A stretch of 63,741 bases of DNA, the filler included, from Globobulimina sp. (Eukaryota), in the NCBI GenBank assembly GCA_003354225.1. It is 24 parts of 24 records of this genome, joined end to end, with 100 filler letters (N's around TTAATTAATTAA, not from the genome) between each part and the next. Parts side by side here need not be neighbours in the genome. Positions count along the whole stretch, not along the records: positions 45,234 to 47,792 come from PIVH01005987.1; 23 more parts are not named here. One strand, written 5' to 3'. Below are positions 5,225 to 61,263 of the stretch, piece after piece (position 1 is the first letter of the stretch; the number at the start of each line of letters is the position of its first letter). Under the pieces are notes generated by a model. It was not told the DNA's origin and ran no database searches. It saw nothing but the letters and a program-made list of their open reading frames with translations. The position numbers and the translations under genes are program-made.

Positions 5225-5642
5225 NNNNNNNNNNNNNNNNNNNNNNNNNNNNNNNNNNNNNNNNNNNNTTAATTAATTAANNNNNNNNNNNNNNNNNNNN
5301 NNNNNNNNNNNNNNNNNNNNNNNNCATTGGATAAATTTTACTGTGTTTTGTTTTTGTTTTCATCAAAAACGTTTTACACTTTAAATTCAACTAAACTTGA
5401 AAAATGCATCAGTTTGCCGTCGTTTATAAAACCTCACCGTTTATATACTGTTCGAAAAATGCATCAGTTAGAAGCCAATACCACCAACACAATTATATTA
5501 TATTTATATTAAGTCTGATTCCATATGTCATGCGTTCATTTTCTGAACATAATATAGTTACGGTGTATATGCCAAGAATTTAATTCTATCGATCTGTGAT
5601 GTGATATTTATATATTCTTCGAGTCAGCCGCCTAGCTGAATC

Positions 5643-6494
5643 ATGTCAGCCTTAATTCTGACTGTTTTTTGTTGCATATTATATTTTTTTTTACATTCTG
5701 TAACCAGTAGGAATTGCTCAGAATTGCAAGGAAGAAGTGATGTATCAACATCGTTTGGTAAAATCACTGCAGCAATCTACGTGAATGTGAATTGCAGTGT
5801 AAAAATGGTATTTAAACAGCCAGCGGATAAAGGTTATACAGGATGGGCGTGGGGCGGAGATTATTCATTGAGGGGTAAATCATTAATGAATGGTTATTCA
5901 ATTATGATTGATACAGACGGCACAGCGTTAGAATATGAATTAAAACCAAGTCGTCCGTATTTTATTGAGCAGGACGAACAAAATTTAGATTGTAATGTTG
6001 TGAATGAAAATAATTTGCTAACAATTACTTGTGACCGAGATCTATATACAAATGATTCGTATGATTATTATGAGGGATGGAGCTCATTTGGAACAACGGA
6101 TGTTATGTGGTGTTGGGATAAAAGTGGAGGAGTTTCCCCTTCAAACACTCATTCAAATGAGGGGTTTACTCAAATGCATATGGGAGATGGTCAAAATCCA
6201 TTCATTTATGAAATTATTGGTGTTTCTATTGCTGTTATCTTGATATCAATGTGTTGCTGTTATTTGTTTGGAAAACGATGTGGAGCTCTTGCATGTTTCA
6301 AGAGAAGTATACATAAATACTGCATGGTATATTTTGTGGATGCATATTATGGAATATTTTGTTGTCATTTCTGTAAATTCGATAGGAAGTCATTGATGGA
6401 CGATGGCTATGCAAAAGGAAGTGGTGATGAAGCAAAGCCAGAGAGTTACGATCTTGATATTGCTCAAAATAATGAAACTAGAGATTTGCAATAA
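5643..6494 (+). CDS. DOMON-domain type I membrane protein
   Basis: Signal peptide; GWAWG, LMNG, RDLYTNDSYD and THSNEG motifs resemble DOMON; single TM followed by a Cys-rich juxtamembrane tail. Confidence 0.65.
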   Translation: MSALILTVFCCILYFFLHSVTSRNCSELQGRSDVSTSFGKITAAIYVNVNCSVKMVFKQPADKGYTGWAWGGDYSLRGKSLMNGYSIMIDTDGTALEYELKPSRPYFIEQDEQNLDCNVVNENNLLTITCDRDLYTNDSYDYYEGWSSFGTTDVMWCWDKSGGVSPSNTHSNEGFTQMHMGDGQNPFIYEIIGVSIAVILISMCCCYLFGKRCGALACFKRSIHKYCMVYFVDAYYGIFCCHFCKFDRKSLMDDGYAKGSGDEAKPESYDLDIAQNNETRDLQ

Positions 6495-6795
6495 CATTGC
6501 GTTCATTTTGTGATGGAAAATCGCATCAGAAACTCACTACTATGACAATATGACTAGCTCACTTCAAGAAAACTTTAATATTTAAGATATGTAACAGACT
6601 GTGTTTAGAATTTATGACAAGTCTAAAGATAAGACAGTTTAACAACAGAAAGCAAATAATTTAAGGATGGACAAAACGTCATAAATACAAAACATCAAAA
6701 CACCAAAGTGACCAAACAATAAAGATGACAGAAACAAAAAGTAATAATATTTATTAATAATTTGTAATTGGTTGACGAAAGTAATAATAATTAAA

Positions 6796-7886
6796 TTAAT
6801 TTATAGGAGCTAATGTAGGCGCCAATGTGGGTGCAAATGTAGGGATAAAACCAGAATTCTCACCAATTTCAGTAAAAATGCCTTCAACAAATGTAGTACC
6901 AAATGCAACAATCGGCGCAGTTATCGCAGTCATAATAGCTTTTATTAATGTTTTATTCAAAGTGATAATACCTAACAATGTGGGCGCTGCTTTGACGCGA
7001 ACCATTTCTTCTTTTAAACATTGTAATAAAGCAATTGTTTGTTCATATTGTTTATTTTTATTTTCATCGGTTGCAAAATTGGCACACTCAAATTTGAGAC
7101 TTAATATTCCAGAATCAACCCATGTTTGATGTGTTTCTTGTTCGTTATATGGCTTTAATAAATTATACAAATGCACCAATAATGTAATAATAATCATGAC
7201 AACAAATAAAATCAACATCATTAACACATTACTTTTAAGTACCAAACTTAAGAAAAATACTCTTAAATCACCGTCATATTCGTCTTGGAATACAGCAACG
7301 AGTGACATTATTAACATTCCTAAAACAAATACAATTTCTAATGAGATAATCGGATTTGTCAATTCATAAAAATAGCCAAGTTCCCATTTTTCAATATGTT
7401 TCCTATAAAATGTGTGTAATTATAGATGATAAATTGTGTAATTCATGTAAAGAAACATCAGAACAATACCTTAAGTTCCACCATGCTCTTAAAAATTTAG
7501 GTTCAATGATATGAGATCGAGGATCAATATAATTTTTATATTCATCCATTACGCGATTTACATTTTGCTTATTTTGTATAAAATCCATCGGATTTGAAGG
7601 TATTTTCATTAAAGCATAGCTTTTGCGGAATATCATAGTTAAGCGATACATAGTAACTGCCAAAATAAATAAAAATACTATGGCTATAATGTATGATACG
7701 ATGATTGAAAATAAATGTTGTGGCTCTTTTGTTAGTTTGTTGACATACTGTGTTGAATTCGTACATACTGAGATCAAAACCATTAAAATAAAAAATGCGA
7801 TGCAGATAACAGCCACTCCAAAAACAGTAAAACTTGGATAGCAACATTTTCCTTTACAACACGCAGTTGTACCAGATATTGGTAAA
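6796..7886 (-). CDS. Multi-pass membrane protein with GR/7TMIC-like C-terminus, 5'-truncated; intron 7469-7403
   Basis: 67-nt GTATTG..TATAG intron gives ...WWNLR|KHIEKWELGYFYELTNP; C-terminal PTLLGIITLNKTLIKAIMTAI; ends in APTL repeats. Confidence 0.6.
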
Positions 7887-7986
7887 NNNNNNNNNNNNNN
7901 NNNNNNNNNNNNNNNNNNNNNNNNNNNNNNTTAATTAATTAANNNNNNNNNNNNNNNNNNNNNNNNNNNNNNNNNNNNNNNNNNNN

Positions 7987-10263
7987 ATTTTGAATGGCTA
8001 TGGCATCAATAGTTTAAATACTTTGCCATGTTCAGGAGTATCAGTAAAATGTGATGGATATTCCTGTCAAATGGTTTCTACTTTGAATGTGCCAGATTTT
8101 GTTGTGTCCGATTTAGAAACAGATTGTTATTGGCTCAAAGTACAACATTTCTTAGATTGGCAGTGTGAGGGACAATGTGTTGGATCACCCACAGAAACAC
8201 CGACTAGTAATCCTAGTAAAGCACCATCAGAATATACCTATCCTCCAACGGCTGCCCCAACTGCAGCTCCATCAAATCATCCTACTGAAACACCAACAAA
8301 TGCACCATCTGGCTCACCATCGTTTGCTCCTTCATCGAATCCAACCGTTCCACCAACGCAGGCTCCCACTCGTTACCCCACATTGAATATGCATGAAATG
8401 TATGATTCTGTGATTAAGATTACGTATATTTTGGAGGGATTAACTATTTCCAATATAAATAAAGTTGTGTATAATACAATGGATGTTATCTCAGATATTA
8501 TTGAGTTTATAGAACGCAGTTATTTCATTGCATTAAATGGCTTATTTCAGATTGAATATCGAGATTTTGCAGTTTTAATAAATGACATCAATGGCCATGA
8601 CTTATCCAATATATATTTAAAATTGAATGAACAAATAAGATTAAATGGAATAATTTTAGTGAACAAAGTTGACTCAGATGAAATCATCGAAACTTCAAAA
8701 ACAAATACATTCTCTGACGCTGTTAAACACGAATTAATATTATATTTTTCAGATAACCAAAATGTGATTTTTACAGTTGAAGATTCTGATCATTTGCATA
8801 TTTTAACGGATGAAAAAGAAAGAAATTCGTCATTGGCTGTGATTTATATATCTGCGTTTATTATATTTTGTGGATTTGGCTTTTCCGCGTATATTTTGTA
8901 CGGAAATAAGAAGGCAAACTCAGTTATTGATAATGCAAAATATTTGGCACCGTTATTATTTTCCTTACAAATCTATGATTTGTTATCGGATATTAATTTA
9001 TCCTTTGATATATTGACAAATCCGTTGGCTCATTCTGGTGATTATAAAAGTAATATGATATTTTATTGCGGCATAGCTAGCGTAGTATTTACAGTGATTC
9101 CATATTTTACAAATTTATTATATGCAATTAAAATAAAAACACAACAAGTTATTAGGAATAATAATAGAGCGGATACTTATTTTACTGATCGCGTTGCATT
9201 GTTCATCGGACTCGTTGTGGTGTCTGGCGGTTGCTATCCATCGCTGTTGTTATGTTCGTCGCGAATGTTGAATTTGGACGCATTTACATCTGGTTTGACT
9301 CGCTATGAACTCTCGCAACTCACACAAATCAAAATAAAATCAACCATCACATTAGGTATGTTACAAAATAATTATATAACAATGTGTTACTCACAACATA
9401 CTATAAATATTATTGTAGAGAATGGTCCACAATTAATCATCCAAATTGTTTATGTGCTATTAACTACATCAAGCACCATATCGCCAGCTGTATTTTTAGC
9501 ATTTGTCGGTTCCTCGTTATCCATTTTGATGGCAGTGGCCTCATATTGTGCCAATAAAGAAAGCTCTAAAAATGCAGAATTTGTTTCATATTTTATGCGA
9601 TTTGTGAATAGTGATAATACGGATAAATTGACGGATGAACAAAAGAATCACATTAAACAAAAGAAAGAGAGGAAATCTGCATTACAAAAATTGATTGCTA
9701 CAGCATTTGGAACGTCTCATGAAAACATAGAAATTGGGTTTTCTAAAATTATTAACAACGGCTTGGAAATGCATATTATTCATTTTGTGCCTGGTTCAGA
9801 GAAAGAAAAATTTATTGAACAAATTAATTCTGGATTTATGGGGGTTGGATATCAAAGATTTTTGACAGCAAAACAATATGTGATGGCAAGGTATAACGAG
9901 ATAAATGATGAGATGAATGATGCGGTGAGAGAGCATTTTGAAATTAATCAGCAATCATTTATTGTAGCATTTGATGATGAAAATATTGCAGTTCGTGATA
10001 AGGAACCATTAATACGACGCACTGGATATAATACAAATAAATATCGATCACCAAATCAGGATCAAGGCACGGTTGAAATGATGGAATTGATGTCGAAGGA
10101 TATTAAGGATATTAAGGAGGTAATATATCATCATCGAGTACAAAAAGTCAATGAAAATGATGGTGGTGACCATGATGATGATGATGGGAATGGGCGGGTT
10201 AATCATATTGAGGAATCAGGAGAAAATGATGGAAATGTTACAACTAATTATTTCCAAGAGTAA
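7987..10263 (+). CDS. Cys-rich + PT/PS-repeat stalk + XK-related-like multi-pass membrane protein, 5'-truncated; probable in-frame intron 9356-9418
   Basis: 757-aa ORF with PTxxP stalk and motifs QIYDLLSD, GLTRYEL, ENGPQLIIQ; GTATGT..TGTAG 63-nt segment absent from the paralog. Confidence 0.8.
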   Translation: MLNGYGINSLNTLPCSGVSVKCDGYSCQMVSTLNVPDFVVSDLETDCYWLKVQHFLDWQCEGQCVGSPTETPTSNPSKAPSEYTYPPTAAPTAAPSNHPTETPTNAPSGSPSFAPSSNPTVPPTQAPTRYPTLNMHEMYDSVIKITYILEGLTISNINKVVYNTMDVISDIIEFIERSYFIALNGLFQIEYRDFAVLINDINGHDLSNIYLKLNEQIRLNGIILVNKVDSDEIIETSKTNTFSDAVKHELILYFSDNQNVIFTVEDSDHLHILTDEKERNSSLAVIYISAFIIFCGFGFSAYILYGNKKANSVIDNAKYLAPLLFSLQIYDLLSDINLSFDILTNPLAHSGDYKSNMIFYCGIASVVFTVIPYFTNLLYAIKIKTQQVIRNNNRADTYFTDRVALFIGLVVVSGGCYPSLLLCSSRMLNLDAFTSGLTRYELSQLTQIKIKSTITLGMLQNNYITMCYSQHTINIIVENGPQLIIQIVYVLLTTSSTISPAVFLAFVGSSLSILMAVASYCANKESSKNAEFVSYFMRFVNSDNTDKLTDEQKNHIKQKKERKSALQKLIATAFGTSHENIEIGFSKIINNGLEMHIIHFVPGSEKEKFIEQINSGFMGVGYQRFLTAKQYVMARYNEINDEMNDAVREHFEINQQSFIVAFDDENIAVRDKEPLIRRTGYNTNKYRSPNQDQGTVEMMELMSKDIKDIKEVIYHHRVQKVNENDGGDHDDDDGNGRVNHIEESGENDGNVTTNYFQE

Positions 10264-12375
10264 CAGTTGAAAAATTTCAGTTTTTTTTGTAATTTATACT
10301 TTTTTCTAATTATATGGCAACGTCCGTAAACCCTCGCCGTGTATTCAATTTGTCATAACTTGCAATCGATGCAATGTGAATAAACCATATGAAACAAAAC
10401 AAGTAAACCAAGTTTTGAAAACGGGCACTAAAAATGAACCATGCTGTCAGGAAAAGACGGTCACAATTATTAGTAAATGGATACGTTAGAAAATCATGGT
10501 CTCAATACATCCATAGAGATATTATTAGTGTCATTCGTGCATTCCATTNNNNNNNNNNNNNNNNNNNNNNNNNNNNNNNNNNNNNNNNNNNNTTAATTAA
10601 TTAANNNNNNNNNNNNNNNNNNNNNNNNNNNNNNNNNNNNNNNNNNNNGTCATCGTTGGTTGTTTGTCTATAACTCGACCAATACTACCCAGTATTGTCT
10701 GATTTTTGAGGTTTCCAGTTATGGAGATTTTATTACGGATATTTTCTTTTTGCATGCAACAACATTCATGCAACAACATTTATCAGTGAGATTGATATAA
10801 CACCCGGTACTACATATCGGGTCTAACGACGGCATCCACTTTTTAATATACCTGGCAACACGCATATTTGATGGCAAACCCCACTATAAAACATAGTGGT
10901 CCCCGATCGGCACATGCCTCGATTATGTTTGTTGTCAAACATATTTTATGAGTATTTACTAATTTCTAACACAATTTAATCGCAACACACGTTTCCGTCA
11001 GAAAATATCTAAATAAGGTCGAGAAGAACGGTACTAATTTTAACTTGCCCAATGTTGCCTGGTGTGAGCTGAAAATTAAAACATAAAAATTTGAAATATT
11101 TTTTGGACCGAAAAAATTTAAAAACTATTCTCCAAGTTGACTAAAAACACTATTGAAAGACGTATAGCCTATTATGGATGAAACAAAAACATTTATACTT
11201 ACTTTTCACACTTTAAAAGCTGATGACGAGGGGTATAGAAATTGAAGTGGTGAAGGTTGGAGAGGTGTCGAAGTCTGCCATACGCTGTGCAGGTATAAGA
11301 GAAAGGCATCGGGATACATACTGTAGGGCTGGTTTATTCTGGGGAAGGAGTGAGCACATAAGTTCGGGGAATGGTTTACAGAGAACAATAAAATCAAACA
11401 AACAAAATGACACCATGAATTGTAAATACAGTAGTAGATTAACTATTTAATTGGACTCTTTCCAGAAAATCACGAGAATTAAGCTCTATCTCTTGTGATT
11501 TTGAGGAATGAGCATCAAATATAAATAGTATTATCTGTATTTTGCATATGTAGGCCTTGATCTATTCTAGGAGGGTGAAAGGTTAGTACACTTTGACTCA
11601 TTGTATCTCGCCGGTTTCACAGGCACCATACTTTTGGCACATGTTATAAAAACCCTGGCTACGACCACAAATAGGCATCCGCCAGACAGACATGCAGACC
11701 AAAATTTTATTGTGGAAAAACTAAAATTACCTAGTCTCAACTTTATAATGGCGGTGTTTGCTCCAGATAAACTTTTGTATAGAGATTAGTCGATGTAATG
11801 AAAGAATTTTTTAGAGTTTTAAATTTGACCCATTTTATACCCCTATTATTTCCCAGTTTGAATTAAAACCGGAGTAGCCGGAAAAGGTGGTAACGAGAGA
11901 AGCAAGTTTCAACTTATAACGATCCTGTTTCGAGTAAAAACTATAATAAGAATCGATCGCAAATAATCATACTTTGCGTGTAATCTGTGACTTCACACTG
12001 GAGAGGACTAATCTTATGTTTAATATGCAACGAATTTAACTAAAATATGCTAGTTTCACCTAAGATATAGATATTTCACAATAAAATCTAGTAATTAGAC
12101 CTATAAATAGGGAATCACCATCATTTTATTGTGAAATATCATTATCTGACTAATCTATAGGTTTCACATTTCCCGCGTGTGATTAACAGGTTATATGCAT
12201 TGAATAGATATATAATTACGAAAGTTGCAAAGGTTCCCCTAAATGTACAGTAATAAAACACGATTATGGAATATCTATGAAAATATTACACAGTGACTGG
12301 TGCAAACAGGTATTTTACAGTTATGTTGATAAATAAGGGGATAAGTTGTCCACAAAATAATGCATGAAGAAATCC

Positions 12376-13210
12376 TCAGCGCATAAACATTGTCTGAATA
12401 GAAATAAAATTGGCAAAAAAATAAAACAAAAATGGAATATTAAAATATTTTAAAAGCATAATATTTGCCAAAATAGGTCCTATAAACGTTTTGAATATCC
12501 ATGTATCATTGCTGTCAGACCAGAAAAAGTGGTCCGATACTACGAGCTTGTATATCATCATTTCACCAGAACGGGTGGCTGAAAATATGGTAATATAAAT
12601 TTAAACAAAAAACATATTTTACAACTCACTAGTCGCATCGGCAGAGGTCGCCGGAGTCGTATTTATAACATACCAAGTAGAACTTTTTGAATTGTCCGTA
12701 GATGTTGCTCCTGTTGTTTCTAAATTGTGTTTAACATTAGAACAAGGTTTATGCACTTATTAAAATGTTTTACCTGACTGTTTTAGAACACAATCTGAAC
12801 CAAGAATTTTATGATTTTCCAAGCATCGGCACTTCTTATTAACACACCGAGAACCACCCATACACGAATCCATCCAGATACAGGCTTTTCCAGGATTTAC
12901 TAAAACTATACAAATGAAACATTGTCATAGCATGTAATGATTTCATTACTTTTATTCAAAACTGCAAATCCTTTAATTGTACTGCTTCCACCAGGCCCTT
13001 TATCCGACAATGCAGTAACCATAACTGTGTATAAACCAGATTGAAAAACGACTGGAGTATTAAAATGAGTATAATGAGTTCGTTTCGTTAATACCAGCCG
13101 TTTTGTAATTTCATTAACGTCAATTGTGCTCCAGTGTGTCGTGTTAATATCGTCCCTGCCTTCAAGCAAAGAAAGGTCAATTGTCTGGCCGATTGCAGGC
13201 ACAACAATGT
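12376..13210 (-). CDS. Animal-like multi-exon gene: FN3-like C-terminal strand + EB-like Cys module + Thr-rich linker; introns 12949-12900, 12773-12720, 12629-12579
   Basis: YTVMVTALSDKGPG (FN3-like); INPGKACIWMDSCMGGSRCVNKKCRCLENHKILGSDCV (EB-like); three phase-1 introns of 50-54 nt ending TTTTAG, ATTTAG, TTTTCAG keep the frame. Confidence 0.65.
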
Positions 13211-13507
13211 NNNNNNNNNNNNNNNNNNNNNNNNNNNNNNNNNNNNNNNNNNNNTTAATTAATTAANNNNNNNNNNNNNNNNNNNNNNNNNNNNNNNNNN
13301 NNNNNNNNNNAGTACACAAATAAGAAAATTGGTGAAAAAAATAATGGGAACTATAGGTGGTCGTGAAACGACAGTCTTGAAATGATGTTTCCCGCTATAA
13401 TATGATGGGAGAACAGTGATAATATAATAAGTTAGCTACTATAGCATCCTTGATTTGCGATTTATTTGTTTTTGATACCTACTTCAGTTGTTTTATCCAG
13501 TTTGATC

Positions 13508-14023
13508 ATGTCCAAGTTCCAGTTTAATAATAATAATAATGGAAATGATCAAACCATTCAAACTCAAAATGGAGAAGCAAATTATAGTGGACCACATAGT
13601 GGCTCTGTTACCAATAATAATTATGCACAGCCTCGAAAAATAACCCCGGCGGCTGGATTTATTATTCAATACGTAAATGCCAATGATCATGAAACAACCA
13701 TCGATGCGGCTGCACAGATTGTTTTCGCTGGAATTAATGAATTTTCTTCTGAGCCATTCAAACAATCCATCACAAGCGGTTTTCAATCATTACCTTCAAA
13801 ATCAATGAAAATTAATTATTTATCAAATGCAGTCAATGGTTTATTGAGGTACAGAAAAAATCGAAATGTAAATTATCCAGATACTAAAGGCGTATTTTCT
13901 ACATTCAAAAAAAATGTCAAAATCTCATTGAAATCATTAAAAGTTACGTATGTGTTCATGTGTGGTTTTATCGGAGGGGGTCTCTTTAAAACGTGCAGTT
14001 TTTACCTTTTTTCATGGCCTTAA
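13508..14023 (+). CDS. Hypothetical protein (Asn-rich N-terminus), running into a repeat array
   Basis: Open frame from MSKFQFNNNN; no recognisable domain. Confidence 0.35.
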   Translation: MSKFQFNNNNNGNDQTIQTQNGEANYSGPHSGSVTNNNYAQPRKITPAAGFIIQYVNANDHETTIDAAAQIVFAGINEFSSEPFKQSITSGFQSLPSKSMKINYLSNAVNGLLRYRKNRNVNYPDTKGVFSTFKKNVKISLKSLKVTYVFMCGFIGGGLFKTCSFYLFSWP

Positions 14024-14215
14024 AAATTGGCAGTTTCGCCTGTTTTGATGGCCCTAAAAAATTGGCAGTTTCACCTTTTTTGTTTTAAAAAATTTGCAGT
14101 TTTCACACGTTTTTCATGGCCCTAAAAAATGGACAGTTTCATCCTTTTTCTCTTAAAATGGCAGTTTGTACCTTTTTTGCTAAAAAATTGACAGTTTTCA
14201 CCCATTTTCGCCCTG
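13985..14215. repeat. Seven degenerate 29-36-bp tandem units (core AAAAATTGGCAGTTT) ending in ...TTTTCGCCCTG; possible transposon subterminal repeats
   Basis: CAGTTT cores at about 13996, 14031, 14066, 14097, 14133, 14162 and 14192. Confidence 0.8.
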
Positions 14216-14568
14216 TGTTAACCACTCATATAATTCTAACCGTAGCCGTTGTATTTATATGCACAGAGAGCCAAGAAAAAAGCAACAATTACAAACAAAG
14301 AAAATTCACAACGGCCACCAATATCGCATCCAACGTTCAGTTTATTTTATTTTATTCATTATTGATGCGCTCTTAGCACTATCTAACACTGTTTATCTCA
14401 CCAGATTTAATCACAACACTTTTGATAAAGACGATGCAAAACATACACAAAAAGATGATACAAAGTTATTTATTATATTTTAAGTAATTAACCATTTCGC
14501 AAAATCGCACATATTTTTTTTATCCTCGCACATACAGAACTGGAACAATTTCATCATTTAAAGATTTT

Positions 14569-15690
14569 ATGTTCAATGAAGAATTAATAAAAGCTATCGA
14601 CGATATGGCAGGTTTTGAGCATCCCTCAGATGTCCAACAGAGAGCAATACCGATCGCAATATCTGGACAGGATATTATTGTAAACGCAAAACCCGGCACT
14701 GGGAAAACAACAACATTTATATTGGCCACATTACAAACAATTGAAGAGGGCGCTTTTATTGATACATTAGTGTTGGTTGCATGCAGTGAGATGGCACCGC
14801 AAATATTTAATGCGTTTAAACGTTTTAGTAAATATATGGACATCCAAATTGGCTGTGTGTGTGGTGGGGTGCCATTTAGTGAGAATAAAAGAGTGGTTAC
14901 TGAGGAGAGGGCACAAATATTAATTGGTACACCAGGCACAGTGTGTCGTTTATTGCAGAGTGAGAGTGGCTTGTTGCAATTGGGCAAATTACGAAGATTT
15001 GTAATCTATGAATGCGATATTTTTAATCAAATTGATAGGCGTAAACAAGTTGAATATATTTTTAATCGAACACCCCATAATAAACAAGTGATGATATTTA
15101 GTGGCGGCATTAGTGAAAGTAATAAAAGTATGTTTAGAAAATTCACAAAAAATGCACAAGAGATATGTGTGGATGGAACCCCATTAACATTGCATGGATG
15201 GAACACCATTAATTTCCAACAACATTTTGTTAAATTATTGGAGAAGGAAAAAGATAAAAAAGTAAATGCTTTATTGGATGCATTTGATTTTAATCAAGTT
15301 GTAATATTCGTAGATACAAAAGCGAGAGGAAAAGGATTAAATGGTTTATTGAGGCAACGTGCATTTCCTTCGATTTGTGTGCATAGTGATATGGGAGAAA
15401 GAGAGAGGTTACGTATTTTAGGAGAATTTAAACAATATAAATATCGAATATTGGTAAACGTAAATGTAATTGATTTGTTTTGTGATATTGATATTTTCAG
15501 AGTAAATATTGTAATCAATTATGATATGCCACAGGATATTGATGAATATTTACGTCGAATGACTAGATTTAGTACACGTACGAAAGGATTGGTAATTACA
15601 TTTGTTTGCAGTGCTGACGAAGCTGACACTCTCAGCAAAGTAAAAGTTACACCATTACCAAATCAAATTCCTTCCAACGTTTATATGTAA
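14569..15690 (+). CDS. UAP56/DDX39-like DEAD-box helicase paralog with degenerate catalytic motifs
   Basis: SFKDF..GFEHPSDVQ, AKPGTGKT, LTLHG..QQHFVKL, DFNQVVIFV and VNIVINYDMP match UAP56; motif II reads YECD, III SGG, VI RRMTRFSTR; homology extends upstream of the ATG, so a 5' exon is likely. Confidence 0.85.
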   Translation: MFNEELIKAIDDMAGFEHPSDVQQRAIPIAISGQDIIVNAKPGTGKTTTFILATLQTIEEGAFIDTLVLVACSEMAPQIFNAFKRFSKYMDIQIGCVCGGVPFSENKRVVTEERAQILIGTPGTVCRLLQSESGLLQLGKLRRFVIYECDIFNQIDRRKQVEYIFNRTPHNKQVMIFSGGISESNKSMFRKFTKNAQEICVDGTPLTLHGWNTINFQQHFVKLLEKEKDKKVNALLDAFDFNQVVIFVDTKARGKGLNGLLRQRAFPSICVHSDMGERERLRILGEFKQYKYRILVNVNVIDLFCDIDIFRVNIVINYDMPQDIDEYLRRMTRFSTRTKGLVITFVCSADEADTLSKVKVTPLPNQIPSNVYM

Positions 15691-16135
15691 TAATAGTAAA
15701 TATGAATACCTATTTAAATTAATTGTTTCTTATTGTTTTTATATATTTTTTGTTTTTATATCTTACTTTTTTATTTTTCTATTTTTTTATCTATTTTTAC
15801 ATTTGGTTTATGGATTTTTTTATTATTTTTAATTATATAATTAAATTAAGTTTATTTTTTTTAGAGAATGTNNNNNNNNNNNNNNNNNNNNNNNNNNNNN
15901 NNNNNNNNNNNNNNNTTAATTAATTAANNNNNNNNNNNNNNNNNNNNNNNNNNNNNNNNNNNNNNNNNNNNGTATTCAAAGTTGAAAACCACTCTAGCTG
16001 ACCCAAAAACCTTGCCAATCACAAAAGAAGTGTTTGGAAGTTTAAGCCTAAAAAGTCAAATGTAAATAAACCCAAACTAAACTTAAACAAATAAAGAAAA
16101 CAACACAAACACACAAAATCAATTGACATTAGGTT

Positions 16136-17434
16136 TTATGCCAAAATTTCGAAATCAATAAATTTCTGTAGAAAGTGTAGCATTTCTGACACATAGTCAA
16201 TGTCATCATAGTAGTCTCGTAAAATTTGAATTAACGTCACTTTGTCATCTGGTTCACGCATAATATTTTGCGGAGAGATTGAAAATATTTCTTGCGCCCA
16301 TATTTCAATTAAATCCCTATTGTATGATGTCGATATAATTTGCAATTTATCCTTGTTATAACAAAACGTATTCTGTTTCATCAATGATTTAAACTGAAGG
16401 ATGGCTGCTATTTTTTCCGTATTCGACACATTTGTTGTACCATTTTCATAGTCCAATTTCACACCGATATGCTTGCAAAGTGCGGTGGAATAAATATTTA
16501 AATCAAGGAATGACAGTAATAATTTTGTTAATGGTCTGTGATGCTCTTCATTTAATTCAATATCTTCTGTCAAAAAGGAAAGATCCAAATCAATATAACA
16601 TAATCTATTACATGCCGATAAATCAAATCGCAGCTCCATTAAACTCGAAAAATCGGCTTTTAAAGCAACCACATTTGATGAGATGTTAATTATTTTTATT
16701 TCTTTGTTAAAATCAAATGGATTAAAAAAATTGCCGTTACTTTGAATTTCTACAAATTGTAAATTTGCTGCAGCGGATAACATTTTATTTATTAAATCGA
16801 TGTTGTTCCAATGTGTACGCGTTCGGTTTTCGCCATTATGGATTGACAGTGTCCATAAATTTGGAGCTGATTCAAATTCCATATCATCAATGAATTCATG
16901 ATCAACGCAAAGATTACTAAAAGAAATCCCATGCAAACGAGGACACTCTGATATTAATTTATTCCACATATTAATTCCGACAAAAGGCATATTAATCCAC
17001 TCCAAATTATTTAGATGCGATGTATAATGCAGATATGAATGATTTGCTTGTGACAGCATTTCAATTTTATTTAATGCGCGTACATTTAATCCCATTTTTT
17101 TAGTCAAAATGTCAACTAAATTATATTGATTTGAGTCAAACGATTTAATATTCTTCCAAATGCGTTTCAAAAAGTTGCTCACTGCTTTGTTTGATAGTAA
17201 CTTCATTGATATTGCAATAAATGTTTGTTTATCCACTTGGTTTATTGCCGAACAACAATACAAATCAATAAAATCATAGACACCCAATGAAATTTCGTCA
17301 ATCCGTTTTATTGCGGATGTACATGATCTGTTGAAAATATGTGATGTACGTGAAACATCAAGGATTTGTTTCAATGGTAAGAAGGATGTGATGTGTGATA
17401 CTACCACAGCAGGGAGAATTAATTCGATGTTCAT
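16136..17434 (-). CDS. F-box / LRR-like protein
   Basis: N-terminal LPAVVVSHITSFLPLKQILDVSRTSHIF fits the F-box pattern; downstream CPRLHGISF, APNLWTLSI, AANLQFVEI, CNRLCYIDL are LRR-like. Confidence 0.7.
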   Translation of the reverse strand: MNIELILPAVVVSHITSFLPLKQILDVSRTSHIFNRSCTSAIKRIDEISLGVYDFIDLYCCSAINQVDKQTFIAISMKLLSNKAVSNFLKRIWKNIKSFDSNQYNLVDILTKKMGLNVRALNKIEMLSQANHSYLHYTSHLNNLEWINMPFVGINMWNKLISECPRLHGISFSNLCVDHEFIDDMEFESAPNLWTLSIHNGENRTRTHWNNIDLINKMLSAAANLQFVEIQSNGNFFNPFDFNKEIKIINISSNVVALKADFSSLMELRFDLSACNRLCYIDLDLSFLTEDIELNEEHHRPLTKLLLSFLDLNIYSTALCKHIGVKLDYENGTTNVSNTEKIAAILQFKSLMKQNTFCYNKDKLQIISTSYNRDLIEIWAQEIFSISPQNIMREPDDKVTLIQILRDYYDDIDYVSEMLHFLQKFIDFEILA

Positions 17435-34594: not shown

Positions 34595-36853
34595 GAAATC
34601 GCGAAATATGACGAATATAAACACCATTTGCTGTCCCATTTAGTGAGTATGAAATTGACATACTGGGATATCAAAATTCGTAATCTCGCAGCCAAAGCAT
34701 TGTATGAATTGTGTGAGTTGGATGTTGCATATATGGTCGATACTGTATTGCCAATATTAATCAACCGCTGCCAATCCCAGTCTGTATTCGAACGGCATGG
34801 AGCTTTATGCGGCATCGCTTTGATTATCCGCAGGTTAACGGAATTAAATAGTGATTTTAGCAGTGATTTGCAGAAACATATTAAAAATATCATACCGCGC
34901 TTAGAAAAGAACCGTGGTTATCGAGGTCGTGGCGGCGACCGGATACGAATGGAATGTTGCAATGTCATGGAAGCGTACTTCGACGCAAAATTTACATTAT
35001 CACGGAAAGGCATTGACCGATATCAGCAGAGCATTGACGAAAACCTGCGCATCGCACAGGAAATTGTGCAGAATTCCGCGCAAAACGCATTGACTGCGCT
35101 GAGCAAGAACTATTACGATCGGATCGAGGAATTCATCGCAGTGCGCTGTGAACAGATCACTGTGAAATGGTGCACTGTGTTACAGAAAGAGATAATTGCA
35201 TCGGTTACGCGCGGATACTGTCGTGGTTTGGGAGTGTTGTCCAGCAAATTGATATTACCTCATTTGAAGTTGGTGGTTGACACATTGATAAAGAAAACCT
35301 TGATCACAGAGAAAGAGGACACGCGCGATTACGAAACGCGGAAGTTTGCCTGCATTGCTTTGGCGGATTTGATGCATAATATCGGTGTTCGGGAAGAGTA
35401 CGAATATGAATGGGACGTCGAGGAGGATGCGGACACCAAAATGGATGTTGACGAGGACGAGGATGAGCTGTTGGCGTTGGGGATGGATTTGGATGTTACA
35501 AAGCGGAGATATGAGAGGAACAGACATAATGTGATCGTGGATGAGCAGTTTCGATTTGTTTTCGAGCGCAGCGGCGCAGAAAGTTCGTTGTTGTATGACC
35601 GTATCATCGGTGCTCTGTTGCTGCGTTTCGAAGACTATGAAGTGGACAGAAGAGGCGATGTTGGCTCGTTTGTGCGGCAACATTTGCTGTTACAGATCGT
35701 GCGTTGTATGGTGTTGTTGGCCAAAGCGGGCAAAAAAAAGGACGGTGAAACGCCATGGCTACGGCCGGCATTACCAACGTTGATATTAAATATGATATTA
35801 AGGTACAATGTATCTGCCATGCTTTACAGAAACAGAACTATGTGATTTTAGCATACATAGATCAAATGCGCGCATTGTATATTTCTGTTTGTGTACATTT
35901 TTGCATTGCTTTGCGTCGTCAGACAATTAGCAGAGAAATTGGATCGTGTCCGGCGTGCAGCGGGCTCGATAATTGAGTTTATTTTTGACAGCGACGATGA
36001 AGATATCCAGGCCATCCGTTTTGAGTCAGATGCGCAGATTCGCTCAATATTGGCCAATCAGTCGGGAAGTGACTGGAGTGCGCCAGCCGTGGTATTTCCA
36101 GTATTGGTCAAGGCGTTGGACTTAGAATCTTATCGACGATGTCTTATCGAAGGGTTGATTCAAAGCGTTGGCTGCATAAATTCGACAATGAGTAAATTGG
36201 CGCTCGCTGCGTTGGAGCCGTATTTAAATGGATTATCTACGCATTCTGAAGCAAACCAAGCGAATATAAGTCAGTTGGTATTGATTAGTAAGGATTTAAT
36301 TTATTGTCTGCAAAAAAGGCATTTGAATCAATTATTTATGGTTCCTTTTTTAAAGGCGATTGGCATTTTGTTGGCGGACAAAATATATTTCGAGCCATTG
36401 CAAACAATGTCTGCCGGGAAGGAGTTTGCGGTCTCAATGTACAATCAATTAAAAAAAGAGTGTTATAAATCGACGGATATATTGAAGTTATTGACCAGCG
36501 TCAAAGTGTGGATTGGACTGATTTTGTTTCCTGACACTCGCGAAGTGGCATTGCAGCGATTGATGATTTTTATGGGTTATCAATATCCAGCATTGAGGAA
36601 ACAAACTTGTTTGCAGTTATCATCGGCCATTCATGTGTTTGGAGAGAAACTTATTTGCGACGAAGAGAAACAAAATGAAGTATTTGAATATTTGTCGAGC
36701 AATCTTTGGGGCGGAGATGATTTGGATTTGATTCGGGAACAAAGAAATAAGTTATTTGAAATGTTTGATATTACGCCGCCGAAATTAAAGCCATTGAAAA
36801 AGAAGAAAAAAAGAAAAGTTCAAAATGAAAATAATGAACAAAAGGGCGATTGA
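34595..36853 (+). CDS. TBCD: Tubulin-folding cofactor D, C-terminal part; intron 35803-35922
   Basis: HLVSMKLTYWDIKIRNLAAKAL, RHGAL, YRGRGG, DYEVDRRGDVGSFVR and QLAEKLDRVR are characteristic TBCD motifs. Confidence 0.92.
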
Positions 36854-37043
36854 TTTTGATTGACTGCTTTGCTTTGCTTTGCTTTGACATTATTATAAAT
36901 CAGCATTGAAGCAATCGTCCAATACAACCTTGTCTGTTTTTAAGTTGCTTTTGTTATCGATGAAATGCAAGGATATAATAATTATTACAGGTTAAAAAAA
37001 AGAAAATCATATGTATGGAGTTGGTTGATTTGAGGCAATTCCT

Positions 37044-37154
37044 TCATTCATTTGCGGTTTATTTTGAATAAGTTTTTGAATCTCATTAAATACCGCTCGT
37101 CTTATTGATATATTTTTAATTCCCATCGATTTAAGTTCATTTTTATCAATTTCT
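37044..37154 (-). CDS. C-terminal SAM-domain-like fragment of a gene starting off-contig
   Basis: EIDKNELKSMGIKNISIRRAVFNEIQKL resembles SAM helices 4-5. Confidence 0.5.
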
Positions 37155-37255
37155 NNNNNNNNNNNNNNNNNNNNNNNNNNNNNNNNNNNNNNNNNNNNTT
37201 AATTAATTAANNNNNNNNNNNNNNNNNNNNNNNNNNNNNNNNNNNNNNNNNNNNT

Positions 37256-37373
37256 TTAATGTCGGGTATTTAATGTTGACATGAAAAAAGCTTTGTGGAT
37301 TTATTTTTTTTGCTCCACACTACTGTTTCACAAGTAAGAAAACTCCACAATTCTGTTCCGCAAAAAATGTGCC
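37256..37373. repeat. Conserved 118-bp module, copy A (homolog at 47309-47426)
   Basis: Ungapped alignment, 89/118 identical by hand count. Confidence 0.85.
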
Positions 37374-37558
37374 AGGTGATTGGGACATTAGATTTACATT
37401 AGGTGGCCGACAACACGTCACCTCTAGCCATTAATTATTCATATTTTATCATTATTTTGCTGCTGGAATGATGGCAGATTGTAACTGGAGAGACACTCCA
37501 TGGTCTCGCTCTGCTAAACGTGTTTTATTAGATTGATTTATGTTTTTTATTGCATAAA

Positions 37559-37627
37559 TCTCACGTAGCTCAATTGGTAGAGCACTGTTTTATGCATGGA
37601 ATCCATGTTCAAATCCTGGCGTGAGAT
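37559..37627 (+). tRNA. Degenerate tRNA-like gene (pseudo-tRNA or SINE-like Pol III cassette); anticodon not assignable
   Basis: Acceptor TCTCACG/CGTGAGA; D-arm GCTC-AATTGGTA-GAGC; T-loop TTCAAAT with 4/5-bp stem; anticodon arm short and wobbly. Confidence 0.7.
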
Positions 37628-38131
37628 ATTGGCGGGATGGCGCATTAATACAGGTTTGTTTATATTTTTGTTGTTAAAATTATGGAAAAGCATTATAAAT
37701 TATATAAACAGAAATATCATTATATCATTAAAATGGAATTTTTTATGGTAAACAACATATTTCATATCGATACATTTCTTATGTTATATTTTTGCAAGGA
37801 TATATGTTATATTTTTTGCGGACGAGCCTGCGAGTTCGCTACTTATTTACACTCCTCCTCCCTCCTCCTCCTCCTCCTCCTGTCAAAAGAAAACAACAAA
37901 AAACATCATGGCTGGCTGAAATATATTTTGGATATCAATATTTTGGACTTTTTTTGGTTCCAAAATGTTTCTGGATTTAGGATTTTTGTTTGTTTGTTTG
38001 TTTGTTTGGTTTTGTGTGGTTTACGAGGTGAACCCACTTGGTCGACGGGCTGAGGTTTGGTTTGTTTGGTTTACGAGTGCAAAAAAGAACAATAATTATA
38101 TTTAAAGAACAATAATTATATTTCATTTGTT

Positions 38132-38476
38132 TCATTCGTCTTTGTCGTCTGATGACGATGATGAGAAATTATATTTGGGCGAATGTACAGCATGGCTTGA
38201 TTGGCTTTTTGGACTGTACCACCGTGGAGAAGCTTTTGGTTGCTTTCGTGATGACCAACGACTGCTCGATGATGATTCACAAGGCGATTTTACAGAAAAT
38301 TCATCGCGTACTGTTTCAAGTGTGGAAATTACCTTTTTTAAATCTGCTAAAGCACTGAGAAGTTCTGATGTAATTTCTGGAGTTGGTCGACCCGTAAAGT
38401 TGCGATCTGCGTTTAATAACATTCGTATGTGAAATATTTCTTTTTGTAATAGCATTCGTATGTCTTGTAGATCCAT
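38132..38476 (-). CDS. Small hypothetical protein (helical N-terminus, Ser/Pro/Lys-rich tail)
   Basis: 114-aa ATG-initiated intronless ORF flanked by simple repeats. Confidence 0.45.
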   Translation of the reverse strand: MDLQDIRMLLQKEIFHIRMLLNADRNFTGRPTPEITSELLSALADLKKVISTLETVRDEFSVKSPCESSSSSRWSSRKQPKASPRWYSPKSQSSHAVHSPKYNFSSSSSDDKDE

Positions 38477-38478
38477 AA

Positions 38479-38590
38479 TTGATTGTATGTAATTGAGTGA
38501 GTGATTGTATTGTATGTATTTGAGTGAGATTGATTGTATGTATTTGATTTATGAGTGATTTATAAGTGATTTATGAGTGATTTATATAAC
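38479..38590. repeat. Degenerate TGAGTGATT/TGTATGTA short-repeat tract upstream of the 114-aa ORF
   Basis: Multiple GAGTGATT and TTGTATGTA units visible. Confidence 0.7.
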
Positions 38591-39476
38591 TCATAATCAT
38601 AAATTTTGGATGCAGCTGATTGCAGTTGATTATATATATGGATTATATATTTTCAAATCTCTTGTTGGTGTGAGTCAAAACAAAAACTCGTCCGCTACTT
38701 ACGGGCTTCCCACACCGTAAACACTTTATTGTGAATGTTTATTTGTTTTTTGTAATATGTGGTATGGAGTGCTTATATTCTGTAATATAAAAAAATGAAA
38801 ATACTTATTGAACTGATTGCATTTTTGAGACCTGTTTGATAAGTTTTTAAAAAAATCAGTACTTATCGGAAAGCCCTAGTTAGTTTTGGGTTTTTGACGT
38901 GCATTATGGTTGGGATTGGTTGAGTTGAAGTTGTTAAGGAATTGTGTTATCCACGGGTGTGATACTCTCTTCTTTAGAATTTTTCTAATTGAATGAGATG
39001 TGTTATCCTTGCACTGAAGTTTATTATCAAAAGTCCATATGGTTTATTGTATGGTCACCTTCCTGGCAGTTCCTGCAACGATAGGTGGTTGGTAGGTTTA
39101 TCGTTGGTGATCGCCAGGAAGTAATCAAAGACACGCAGGATCAAAACATTATGCATTTGCATTGGGATGGATTGTCAGTCCGTGTTGCTTTTCTATCATA
39201 ACTTTTATATTTGAAGTGTGTTTGATGTCTTTGTAAGCTACTGGTGATGCCCGAAATTTGGCAGCAGTCATAGCCTCGTTTGTGACAGGGTGTTTTTTTG
39301 TTGTTAAGTTTGAATTTTGTCCCACTACTATTAAAAAAAAAAAAACAAGTTAGTCACTTATTTAGATCTATTATAATCAATGGCGGTTCAATTTGATACA
39401 AATGTTTCTTTAAACACACATTCGTCACACAATATGGACATAATACAAAAACAAAAAACATTGGTCATTTGATACT

Positions 39477-39814
39477 TTATGCAGTTTTTTTCGTAGTATC
39501 ATCAACATCCAAATTGCGTATCAACAACGTAACACCCCCAGTAACGCACAATTCTTTCTGTTGATTAATTCCAGCTATTGCGCATTTAACAAATTTCTTT
39601 CTCCCCAATACTTTCTTGACAGTGACTATACCGTTCAAATCATCATTGATATAAACAGGCAGTCGAAACCTTATATTCATATCAAACGCAATTGCGCCGG
39701 GGAAATGTGCTCCGATGGCAGCTGAAAATATTGACGCAGAAAACATGCCATGTATTATTGCGCCATCAAAGCCTTGCGCTTTGGCCATTGTGTCGTCATT
39801 GACATCATGCAATG
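39477..39814 (-). CDS. MaoC-like (hot-dog fold) dehydratase, 5'-truncated
   Basis: LHDVND..AKAQGFDGAIIHGMF..FPGAI..IRFRLPVYIND. Confidence 0.85.
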
Positions 39815-45233: not shown

Positions 45234-45272
45234 AATAATCTGTAAAAAACTGTAAATTCAAAGAGTTTACAG
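45234..45272. repeat. 39-bp exact terminal direct repeat, left copy (right copy 47754-47792)
   Basis: AATAATCTGTAAAAAACTGTAAATTCAAAGAGTTTACAG occurs at both contig ends. Confidence 0.97.
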
Positions 45273-45359
45273 TAAAAACAGTAATTTCAAACTGAAAAGC
45301 AAAAAGTTAAATGTTACCTTTAACATTTTATTATTAACCTATTTTCCTTCCACAATATC
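45234..45359. mobile_element. Right half of 211-bp MITE (TIR 45316-45351, TSD ACAATATC 45352-45359)
   Basis: TIR is a 34/36 reverse-complement match to 47661-47696. Confidence 0.85.
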
Positions 45360-47029
45360 CTTTTCTTTTTATATCAGTTAAATAAAAATGTGCTGTTGAT
45401 CTATCAAATCACCCTCCAATCCATGTCCATGTACAAGGTCATCATCATATTAATTCCAATCCAAATCATATTCTTTCTTTGTTTATACTAATTTTCATAA
45501 TCATTGACGTTAATGTTTTATAGGATCCAAATACTTTTGGGATTTTGGAACTCTGTTTTCTGTTTATCAGCAACGAATTTGTTACCCTATATCGTTTTTG
45601 ACACCCTGCAATTCATTTGATTTTGAAAATTAGTTTAATTGTATTTGGTGGTTGCTTATTGTTTAAGTTTCTGGTGTAATTCCTTTTCTGCCGACTTTTC
45701 GAACTGAACGAAGAAATGAGATGTGTTCCAAAAATTCAGTACTAATCTGAGAGCCCTAGGTTTGCTCCATTTTCATTTCTGTGTATCTCAACGAAACAAA
45801 ACAGTTTGAACGCAGTTGTATATATCAGATTGTTTCCACAACACTAAAATTGTGACTGTTTTTTTAGCTGTTTGTTGTTGACAGGATTAGCTATAGTGTA
45901 TATTTAGGAGTTGAATTTCTCTTATTTTAAAAATAACTTCAAAAAACAGTTTATTTGTCAACCGTAAATTCAGTAAAGAAGACGTTATAAATAGTAAGTT
46001 GACACAACGCGACCACAAAAGACAACGAACAACAGTGATAAACAATGAAATGGATTTTATTATTTTTATGTTGGGTAACCGCAACCGCAATAAAATATAA
46101 CAACGCAACCGCAATAATAATAATAACATGGCGATTAGATGCTGATATAATTAAAGCCAATGATTGCGAGTATATTTGCAATGGTACTATTCATAACCTA
46201 TAATATGTTTTCAATGGTACTATTTTCCAATTTTACCAATTTAAACTCTTCCTATCATTTCTATCAAATATTTTTATTTCATTTTTGTTTTTGTCCTTTT
46301 TACTTTTTAATATCGTATTTATTCCATGTTGCATTTAGTGTTGCTGTTAAAAATATCATTTTACAATATAAATTATTTAAATTGGTGGATATTTTTATTT
46401 AAAGACTCAATCAAAAGATTTCCTTTTTTCTCTTTTCTATATACATTATATATTTACTCACGTGTATTTACTATACCCATTATTATCCCCCGCGACTGTA
46501 TTATTTTTTTAATTATTTATGCATCAGCTATGTGTTATTATATGTGTATGTTTCCATGCCATATTTAATAGATCCCTTGTGTGATTGTAATGACGTGAAT
46601 TTTTGAATTTTTGAATGCATGCATCCTAACTTCTGGGTCCAAAACAGTGGTCTGCCGTTGTTCCGCCGTGGTTTGTTGTCACACCGTTGTTTGCTGTAAA
46701 GCTGGGATATGGATCACAAATCACCAATACTATCATCTGTATCAACCTGACCAATTGACTATGTCCAACTAAGTATTTTTCGAGACCGTTACATTTAATG
46801 TCTCCTTTACAGTCCAATGTCTTTTATATTGGCGATCCTAAATATGATTTTTACGAGTGAATTTCGTTTAAAAGTATCGACGAAGAAACAGAAATCATAT
46901 TTGGGACAATCTAAAATCGACCCTTCCCGATTTACTTTTTTCAAGAATCGACTTTTTTTGAAAATCAATTACAAAGCATTGGGGAGTCATATGGAAGATG
47001 TGGATTATGTTTATGAAGAAGATTATAAT

Positions 47030-47110
47030 ATCCACCTAGCGCAATTGGCAGAGCATTGGTTTGAATGGATTGCAAACCAAATGGATGTAGGTTCGAATCC
47101 AACGGTGATG
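47030..47110 (+). tRNA. Degenerate tRNA-like gene with enlarged anticodon arm (possibly Phe-GAA-derived with intron-like insert)
   Basis: TAGCGCAATTGGCAGAGC A-box/D-arm; TTGGTTTG/CAAACCAA 8-bp stem; GGTTCGAATCC B-box; imperfect acceptor and T stems. Confidence 0.65.
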
Positions 47111-47290
47111 AGATGCAGCGAGAAAAAGAAGCAATGCCGTAGGCAATTTCTTTTACTGTTTCTGTTCCTTGTCATTTTGCCGTTGGTGACCCACACGTGG
47201 TGACCCAGTTGCTTTTGCGTTGGTGAGGATAACACTGTGTTGGACTGTGGTGGTTCAACTGTACCAAATAGCGGAACCGATGTTGGCTCC

Positions 47291-47426
47291 ATGCTCGACA
47301 TTGGGCAATTAATGTCGGGCATTTAATGTTACCATGCAGACAGTTTTGCGGAAAAGTTTTTAGACTGCCGCAAATCTGTTTCACAACTACAAAAGCTCCA
47401 CACTTATGTTCCGCAAAAAAGGTGCC
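47291..47426. repeat. Hairpin (47291-47322) plus conserved module, copy B (47309-47426)
   Basis: ATGCTCGACATT-8nt-AATGTCGGGCAT; TTTGCGG..CCGCAAA; four YCRCA boxes. Confidence 0.85.
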
Positions 47427-47652
47427 GAATTTTGAAAATTATAAGAATTATCTTTATTCACATTTTGGTGGTGGAAATTATGATCAAATGTATATGGAAA
47501 TGGTGATTTTTCATCACACAACATCATAGAACATGATTATATGCTTTATTTTGCGTTTTAAGCTCATTTTAATCAAACTTAATATCCAAACTTAATTCCA
47601 AGCATAGTTTTGTTGATCCGACAATTAACTGTCAGATCTTCTCCTTGCACAA

Positions 47653-47792
47653 ACAATATCGGAAGGAAAATAAGTTAATAATAAAATGTTAATGGTTCCC
47701 GATGAAACACAACCTTTAAGAATTCAATTTTGACTTTCAATGTTTTTATTTTGAATAATCTGTAAAAAACTGTAAATTCAAAGAGTTTACAG
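47653..47792. mobile_element. Left half of 211-bp MITE (TSD ACAATATC 47653-47660, TIR 47661-47696), continuing across the contig junction
   Basis: GGAAGGAAAATAAGTTAATAATAAAATGTTAATGGT; same 8-bp flank on both sides. Confidence 0.85.
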
Positions 47793-61184: not shown

Positions 61185-61263
61185 GATCCTCACTGGTGTG
61201 GTGTGCAGACTTCAAATCTGTAGGTGTATAACAACACAGTGGTTCGATTCCACCTTCTGCGCG
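61185..61263 (+). tRNA. tRNA-Sec: Eukaryotic selenocysteine tRNA (anticodon TCA at 61212-61214); first ~8 nt cut off by the contig end
   Basis: GATCCTCACTGGTGTGGTG-TGCAGA CTTCAAA TCTGTA-long variable arm GTGT..ACAC-GTGG TTCGATT CCAC-CTTCTGCGC-G; 6-bp anticodon stem, 4-bp T stem and G discriminator, colinear with vertebrate tRNA-Sec. Confidence 0.93.

Follow-up and report, generated by a model that had tools for sequence, protein, structure and literature searches.

An end-overlapping contig from a probable foraminifer is an assembly-graph loop closed through a MITE

Results

Contents of the contig and its host

The window, i.e., the whole stretch of DNA analysed here (63,741 nucleotides), consists of 24 contigs of 2562-2557 bp each, sorted by length and separated by spacers of the form N/TTAATTAATTAA/N. 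The unit under study is one entire contig, 45234-47792 (2559 bp, 32% GC). This contig is best read as ordinary nuclear DNA without coding function, in which patches of dispersed repeats surround approximately 1 kb of low-copy sequence, the low-copy part including 46266-46437; its repeat content comprises a 211-bp MITE, a degenerate tRNA copy, and several further patches, with at least five patches being crossed in all. It is the only one of the 24 window contigs whose own ends overlap, and no overlap was found between the ends of different contigs among the 24. The features of the contig are collected in Table 1, together with their occurrence in two public metagenome contigs (L001 and L002) and in public runs. 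Five public runs were available, all in contig form, with X1 and X2 representing one sample, X4 another, and X5 a second organism (organism B).

The genes on the other window contigs are those of an ordinary eukaryote, and include a DEAD-box helicase, a P450, MIB/HERC2, tubulin cofactor D, and RRM proteins. The helicase lies on contig 13311-15871 and tubulin cofactor D on contig 34595-37154, both named as examples of single-copy gene contigs. The closest relatives of the helicase (14488-15687) are 57-59% identical to it, and three of its top four clusters have members named Ammonia sp., Elphidium margaritaceum, or Nonionella stella. Given these relatives, the earlier label "probable foraminifer" is reasonable; the source organism is probably a foraminifer that is distant from the named Ammonia, Elphidium, and Nonionella relatives.

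Table 1. Positions of features in the contig and of the related module copy elsewhere in the window
Feature	Position	Strand	Remarks
39-mer X, first copy (contig start, at MITE hairpin tip)	45234-45272	+	identical to 47754-47792
MITE right part	45273-45351	+	inverted end 45316-45351; 98.3% to L002, 93.3% to L001
8-bp direct repeat ACAATATC, right MITE flank	45352-45359	+	read from sequence
Dispersed repeat	45478-45555		in organism B (X5 records 26-28); X4 loose ends 45483/45520
120-nt dispersed repeat, sharp end at 46608	46489-46608		common to X2, X4, X5
Segment R1	46696-46963		heavily over-represented in X1 only; bins 4808-8745 vs 0 in X2
Degenerate tRNA-like copy	47030-47110	+	Rfam tRNA 25.3 bits; ARAGORN at lowered threshold only
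Dispersed low-copy repeat ("module")	47141-47428	+	X2 record 15, X5 record 31
8-bp direct repeat ACAATATC, left MITE flank	47653-47660	+	read from sequence
MITE left part	47661-47792	+	inverted end 47661-47696; 47693-47792 = L001, 100/100
39-mer X, second copy (contig end)	47754-47792	+	39/39 to 45234-45272; L001 reads through
Related module copy, very start of contig 37255-39814	37256-37373	+	77% to 47309-47426

Coding capacity, tRNA-like block, and module

The longest stop-to-stop frame in the contig is 134 amino acids long, and none of the 11 longest frames rose above the cut-off in a Pfam scan (best E = 0.008). The unit is non-coding, and the view of the preliminary description that it has no convincing protein gene is upheld. 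A search for a replication gene or origin in the contig likewise gave no frame with a family match (0 of 11), and the module proved marginal in this respect. A conserved 12-mer, CSB-3, is found in kinetoplast minicircles. No CSB-3-like 12-mer with two or fewer mismatches occurs in the contig, and the single match in the window (30232) is equalled by 83 of 100 shuffles.

A Pol III-type tRNA-like cassette had been placed at 47030-47110. A tRNA-like block is present there, but it is weak, as its Rfam score falls below the gathering score of 29 bits, and ARAGORN finds no tRNA at these positions with default settings, while a lowered threshold yields a call with an 8-nt intron. In the block, the 3' acceptor strand is interrupted by a one-base gap, and the D stem contains a mismatch. 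Its relatives in X1 match the tRNA-sized part only, from about 47027/47035 to 47115, and nearly all of them carry a T at 47041, which would restore the D stem. The block thus resembles tRNA genes and tRNA-derived repeats in its tRNA-like size, its B-box-like GGTTCGAATCC, and its D arm, but differs from tRNA genes in its sub-threshold Rfam score, the acceptor gap, the broken D stem, and the need for an 8-nt intron. The block belongs to a tRNA or tRNA-derived family as a decayed copy, either a pseudogene or a repeat. Upstream of it, the repeat that ends at 46608 shows 14 differences in each of three run records (13, 19, and 29), with loose ends behind 46608 in three runs, and segment R1 has loose ends at 46807 and 46963.

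The module recurs in X2 and in organism B (X5) with 11-12 differences and two gaps. The statement that it is also found on another contig is borne out by the related copy at 37256-37373, where the similarity to 47309-47426 extends over 119 nt; this copy lies 185 nt upstream of a good tRNA gene (37559-37627). That contig is the sole other carrier of the module in the window, and it is an ordinary contig whose ends do not overlap, which is at odds with the proposed "family of small circles". Nor did the term "origin-like" hold for the module. Its fold is marginal (z = -2.27, with five of 200 shuffles folding equally well), two of its three CCGCAAA-type words are lost in the 37256-37373 copy, and an Rfam search of the contig at E values up to 10 returned a weak tRNA match and a chance lncRNA match only. 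A replication origin is not supported, given the marginal fold, iterons that are not conserved, and the lack of both a replication gene and an Rfam match. The tRNA-like block and the module are passengers, and imply no function for the unit. A TGGTGACCC word that occurs in duplicate at 47187-47207, within the module, has some likeness to a primer-binding site.

The MITE and its flanks

The two MITE parts lie at opposite ends of the contig, and the complete element was obtained by joining these ends computationally. The joined element is 211 nt long with 24% GC, has no coding capacity, and folds as DNA into a hairpin of -39.5 kcal/mol (z = -9 versus 200 shuffles), the tip of which falls inside the 39-mer. 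Its terminal inverted repeats are 36 nt long and complementary at 34 of these positions (94%). The two copies of ACAATATC directly adjoin the inverted ends, and the match is exactly 8 bp, with no further base on either side. Beyond the two copies, the contig reads ...GCACAA on the left and CCTTTTC on the right. Given the composition, the chance of an 8/8 match at these fixed places is 4.2e-5.

The right edge of the element is set at 45351 by other copies, as this contig, L001, and L002 diverge directly past CCTTCC, and run contigs turn unlike at 45351/45352. Five right flanks are known for the family, and all of them differ: ACAATATC in this contig, GAAAAGAG in L002, AATCTTTG in L001, and CGATAAAA and ATAAAACA in run contigs. 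A strict target site is therefore unlikely. Copies with unrelated flanks are present in L001, in L002, and in contigs of four runs from two organisms; evidence from both flanks for a target-site duplication comes from this single copy. With its inverted ends, its flanking duplication, its small size and non-coding nature, and its multiple copies with unrelated flanks, the 211-bp element is a MITE by the working definition. It is like known MITEs in length, inverted ends, AT-richness, strong hairpin, and 8-bp duplication. A target duplication of 8 bp is typical of hAT-type elements, and the MITE is possibly of hAT type, an assignment that draws on the duplication in one copy. Judged by the 8-bp match and the differing flanks of the family, the two flanks appear to border a single MITE insertion, as the preliminary description had proposed from the common target-site duplication. 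An LTR-type reading, in which a larger terminal repeat would hold the MITE, was considered by eye only, and neither a matching tRNA nor TG...CA edges were found for it.

The 39-nt end overlap

The identity of the first and last 39 nt was confirmed. A scan of public metagenome contigs with a 23-nt core yielded L001 and L002, and a scan of the same collection with the 28-nt left inverted end gave no matches, so the window's own contig is absent from that collection. L002 (1071 nt) has the same 39-mer from its base 1, followed by the MITE right half, with one additional A in an A run, and then by its own flank. L001 (2413 nt, minus strand) starts at the equivalent of 47693, crosses the "junction" without interruption, continues through a right half with 93% similarity, and enters a third flank. 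With L001 continuous across 47792/45273 and L002 starting at the base that also begins this contig, this position is simply part of the inside of the MITE, and the overlap is a hub of the graph. The chance that two contigs that start within a 211-nt element share their first base is approximately 1 in 200, and in the collection of L001 and L002 the start of the 39-mer is a point of recurrent contig breakage. Next to the contig's other stop, directly behind 45273, an insertion polymorphism (an additional A) accounts for ~35% of the X1 depth. The 39-nt overlap is accounted for by two variable sites bracketing an invariant core of a multi-copy MITE.

Since both contig ends stop at the recurrent break place of the MITE, the overlap reflects the assembly graph. 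It is a property of that graph and not of a molecule, and gives no signal of circularity; the description of the unit as "closed" is thus not supported, with L002 starting at the same base and L001 reading through. X4 and X5 each have a single run contig with a joint that "goes back 2520", and X1 and X2 have no such contig. The X4 joint contig stops at 45352, and that of X5 is unlike from 45332 and continues for 269 letters; both are generic MITE copies, ending or diverging at or before the MITE edge. Apart from the overlap, the path that leaves the MITE insertion on its right side comes back, 2301 bp later, to the left side of that insertion or of a copy of it. With its 39-nt end overlap and the same 8-bp flank, the contig returns to its own start, as is expected of a tandem array.

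Coverage and depth in public runs

Contig depth cannot rank parts of the contig, and the values in Table 2 are to be read with this limit. The MITE-to-backbone depth ratio is about 270-760 in X1, 5-38 in X2, and 0.5-5 in X4, and the unit, measured against the MITE family, shifts ~100-fold in abundance between runs. X1 and X2 are discordant within one sample, and genomic copy number cannot account for all of these ratios; one or more of the libraries must be strongly biased, by either amplification or RNA content. The copy number of the MITE is accordingly given as "several to several hundred", as the depth ratios disagree between runs. A paralogous X1 contig of 1618 nt has a backbone-like depth of 32.8, and other paralogous pieces range from 3.8 to 12.

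Table 2. Depth of parts of the contig in three public runs
Part	X1	X2	X4
Backbone, exact match	22-34 (backbone: 22-46)	3.6-4.6	9.4
MITE bins	12251-16675	25-136	5-49
R1 and tRNA-like block (46696-47125)	1948-26215	0-1.7	0-4.4

Of the words sampled from the contig, a fraction of 0.63 occurs in X1. X1 contigs match 45995-46537 and 46579-46782 with no differences, and a composition step at 46608/46609 is spanned, again with no differences, by X1 record 7. The window's letter is missing from X1 at several sites (45512, 47246, 47308, and 47560). Low-copy parts of the backbone recur with 0-1 differences in X1, X2, and X4, i.e., in two samples, so the sequence is not a one-off. In X2, X4, and X5 the contig is partly uncovered, and no run contig spans the full stretch, a result that speaks neither way.

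Discussion

The contig is an assembly-graph loop closed through a transposon. The reading that we regard as the most likely, albeit tentatively and with less than even confidence, is that the 2520-bp unit is a chromosomal head-to-tail repeat. A chromosome would contain two or more head-to-tail units (the MITE plus 2.3 kb), arranged either as a tandem duplication or as a short array, with the MITE having inserted before the unit was multiplied. Both MITE halves would then descend from one insertion, as the shared 8-bp flank implies, and during assembly the copies would have been merged into a single loop, which was opened at the point where no path through the MITE could be resolved. This reading is favoured by the identical 8-bp flank at the exact MITE edges, a match with little chance of being accidental; by the five differing right flanks, which point away from a strict target site; by a contig that has neither an internal break nor another end overlap; by the near-identical recurrence of backbone parts in three runs; and by the behaviour of the overlap as a graph hub. 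Moreover, tandem repeats form assembly-graph cycles that are hard to tell from plasmids, according to the plasmidSPAdes preprint (10.1101/048942). The contig is also like the de Bruijn "whirls" in that its ends overlap and it closes through a collapsed repeat; raised coverage is the usual hallmark of whirls. This contig differs from them in its break at a hub common to L002 and L001. On the other hand, two adjacent units appear in no molecule, read, or contig, and the core scan gave two other contigs, neither of which is a second copy of the unit. X1 lacks the window's letter at the four sites given above, and amplification is not readable from depth, the runs being in contig form and their MITE-to-backbone ratios discordant. 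A two-copy duplication is, in addition, expected to have entry and exit branches that break the contig elsewhere, and these were not seen; an array of at least three copies would be looped unbroken by a majority-rule assembler.

Nearly as likely as a chromosomal head-to-tail repeat is a false closure, in which one linear copy with a single MITE had its right-flank path wrongly joined to its left-flank path. The join could be a chimeric amplification product or a local repeat inside the 2.3 kb, or could alternatively represent a larger repeat, with the MITE already inside it, present in two copies. Opportunities for such a join are suggested by the number of repeat patches that the contig crosses, by the incomplete representation of its words in X1, and by the listed run contigs, each of which spans at most a few hundred bases of it. 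One of the two metagenome contigs, L002, is itself a chimera: in a single 288-aa frame, a match to DNA-PKcs residues 2462-2608 (E 5.8e-12) is followed by one to the C-terminal third of tryptophan synthase beta (E 1.7e-28). However, chance alone would not place a misjoin so close, within 2.3 kb, to the same insertion, and a local cause is needed; no direct repeat of more than 30 nt occurs inside the contig, and the two stretches covered by X1 with no differences take in the composition step at 46608/46609. The topologically simplest route to a contig bounded by MITE halves would be a pair of independent, equally oriented MITE copies separated by 2.3 kb, and L002 and L001 show that contigs of this kind occur. 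Nonetheless, the two copies would have to share their 8-bp flank by coincidence in a family whose five right flanks show no target preference, which makes two independent insertions very improbable, and we give this account hardly any weight.

A free circle, i.e., a 2520-bp extrachromosomal DNA (eccDNA-like or an episome) with one MITE, possibly over-amplified by rolling-circle copying during library preparation, appears unlikely. It would require no entry or exit branch and would fit a contig broken in the MITE only. The ~100-fold shift of the unit versus the MITE between runs, as is possible for a separate molecule, is the only hint for a circle or for differential amplification, but the differences in depth may just as well stem from bias of the libraries. 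As a rule, eccDNA is rare and heterogeneous, and a clean contig is not expected from it without enrichment. The unit has no replication gene, no family-matching ORF, and no convincing origin, and its content is a mosaic of nuclear dispersed repeats. Its junction is MITE interior and hence not specific to the unit, and no unit-specific circular junction was found in the contigs examined. In size range, non-coding and repeat-rich content, and absence of replication functions, the unit is like eccDNA, which a published account (PMC11606643) describes as 0.15-100 kb long and general in eukaryotes. Its likeness to organellar minicircles (kinetoplast and dinoflagellate plastid) is confined to size and a short block common to another contig; it differs from them in having no CSB-3-like word and no gene, in its repeats of nuclear type, and in its transposon, which is flanked by a target duplication. 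Open-access literature text yielded no account of foraminiferal minicircles that are non-coding, and a search of such text on MITEs and tandem repeats of Reticulomyxa found nothing relevant. More doubtful still is a real, multi-copy, 2.5-kb non-coding circle or differentially amplified array that belongs to a family sharing the 47141-47428 module and varies in abundance with the individual or life stage; the ~100-fold difference in the unit-to-MITE ratio between runs might hint at such variation. The remaining probability falls to something else.

If the unit is a tandem duplication or an assembly effect, its significance is mainly that of a caution. Overlapping ends of a contig from a fragmented protist assembly rich in repeats should not be taken as evidence for a circle, and this applies above all to an overlap located within a transposon. 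The unit would bear on the dynamics of foraminiferal genomes only if unamplified DNA showed circles or variable amplification. A small positive result is the well-formed MITE family with its 8-bp duplication. Its near-identity in two differently labelled organisms suggests recent activity.

Repeats shared with other sequencing runs

The two parts of the MITE that lie at 45234-45332 and 47680-47753, 173 nt in all, showed 0 and 1 differences from contigs of X5, a public sequencing run from a separate study that is labelled as an organism other than that of the window. Such near-identity suggests that the element was active recently or that the two organisms are very closely related.

A 120-nt repeat of the same contig (46489-46608) was found in X5 and in two further public runs, X2 and X4, with the same 14 differences in each. 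All of these copies stop sharply at 46608, beyond which those of X2, X4 and X5 share an AT-rich continuation unlike the sequence of the window. The repeat probably represents one end of a further mobile element. In L001, a public metagenome contig that carries the same MITE, a long imperfect palindrome (about 2230-1880, - strand) immediately adjoins the MITE copy. One side of the palindrome holds GT-rich GTGTGCGG-type words, the other side CCGCACAC-type words, and the structure may be a second foldback element.

The second such metagenome contig, L002, has a single open frame (106-969, + strand) in which a mid-part of DNA-PKcs, alignable with residues 2462-2608 of the human protein, is fused to the C-terminal third of the tryptophan synthase beta chain, and along which the GC content rises from about 0.30 to 0.44. 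Most probably, L002 is a chimera, perhaps made up of host DNA and a bacterial or transferred gene, and the fusion calls for caution regarding false joins in the metagenome collection to which it belongs.

Uneven depth

The depth of 46696-47125, a stretch that includes the tRNA-like block, was 1948-26215 in X1 versus 0-1.7 in X2, a run from the same sample, and was close to zero in X4 and X5. The explanation is either a library of a very different type in X1 (RNA or amplified) or high expression of these segments.

Genes on other contigs

Genes and open frames on other contigs of the window
Feature	Position	Strand	Remarks
758-aa open frame	7987-10260	+	occupies most of its contig; open at contig start
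UAP56/SUB2-type helicase	14488-15687	+	nearest relatives are foraminifera
tRNA gene	37559-37627	+	Rfam, 40.9 bits
Selenocysteine tRNA	61185-61254	+	Rfam, 51 bits

A Pfam search with the 758-aa frame gave no match at E <= 1e-5, nor did several further long frames of the window (about 360-550 aa). The helicase shares only 59% identity with its closest relatives, which is low for so conserved a protein and fits a fast-evolving lineage. The selenocysteine tRNA starts at the first base of its contig, lacks model positions 1-8 and was not called by ARAGORN; the other tRNA gene was likewise not called, even with introns allowed. The latter gene sits 185 nt 3' of a copy of the module, a dispersed low-copy repeat, and this copy opens the contig.
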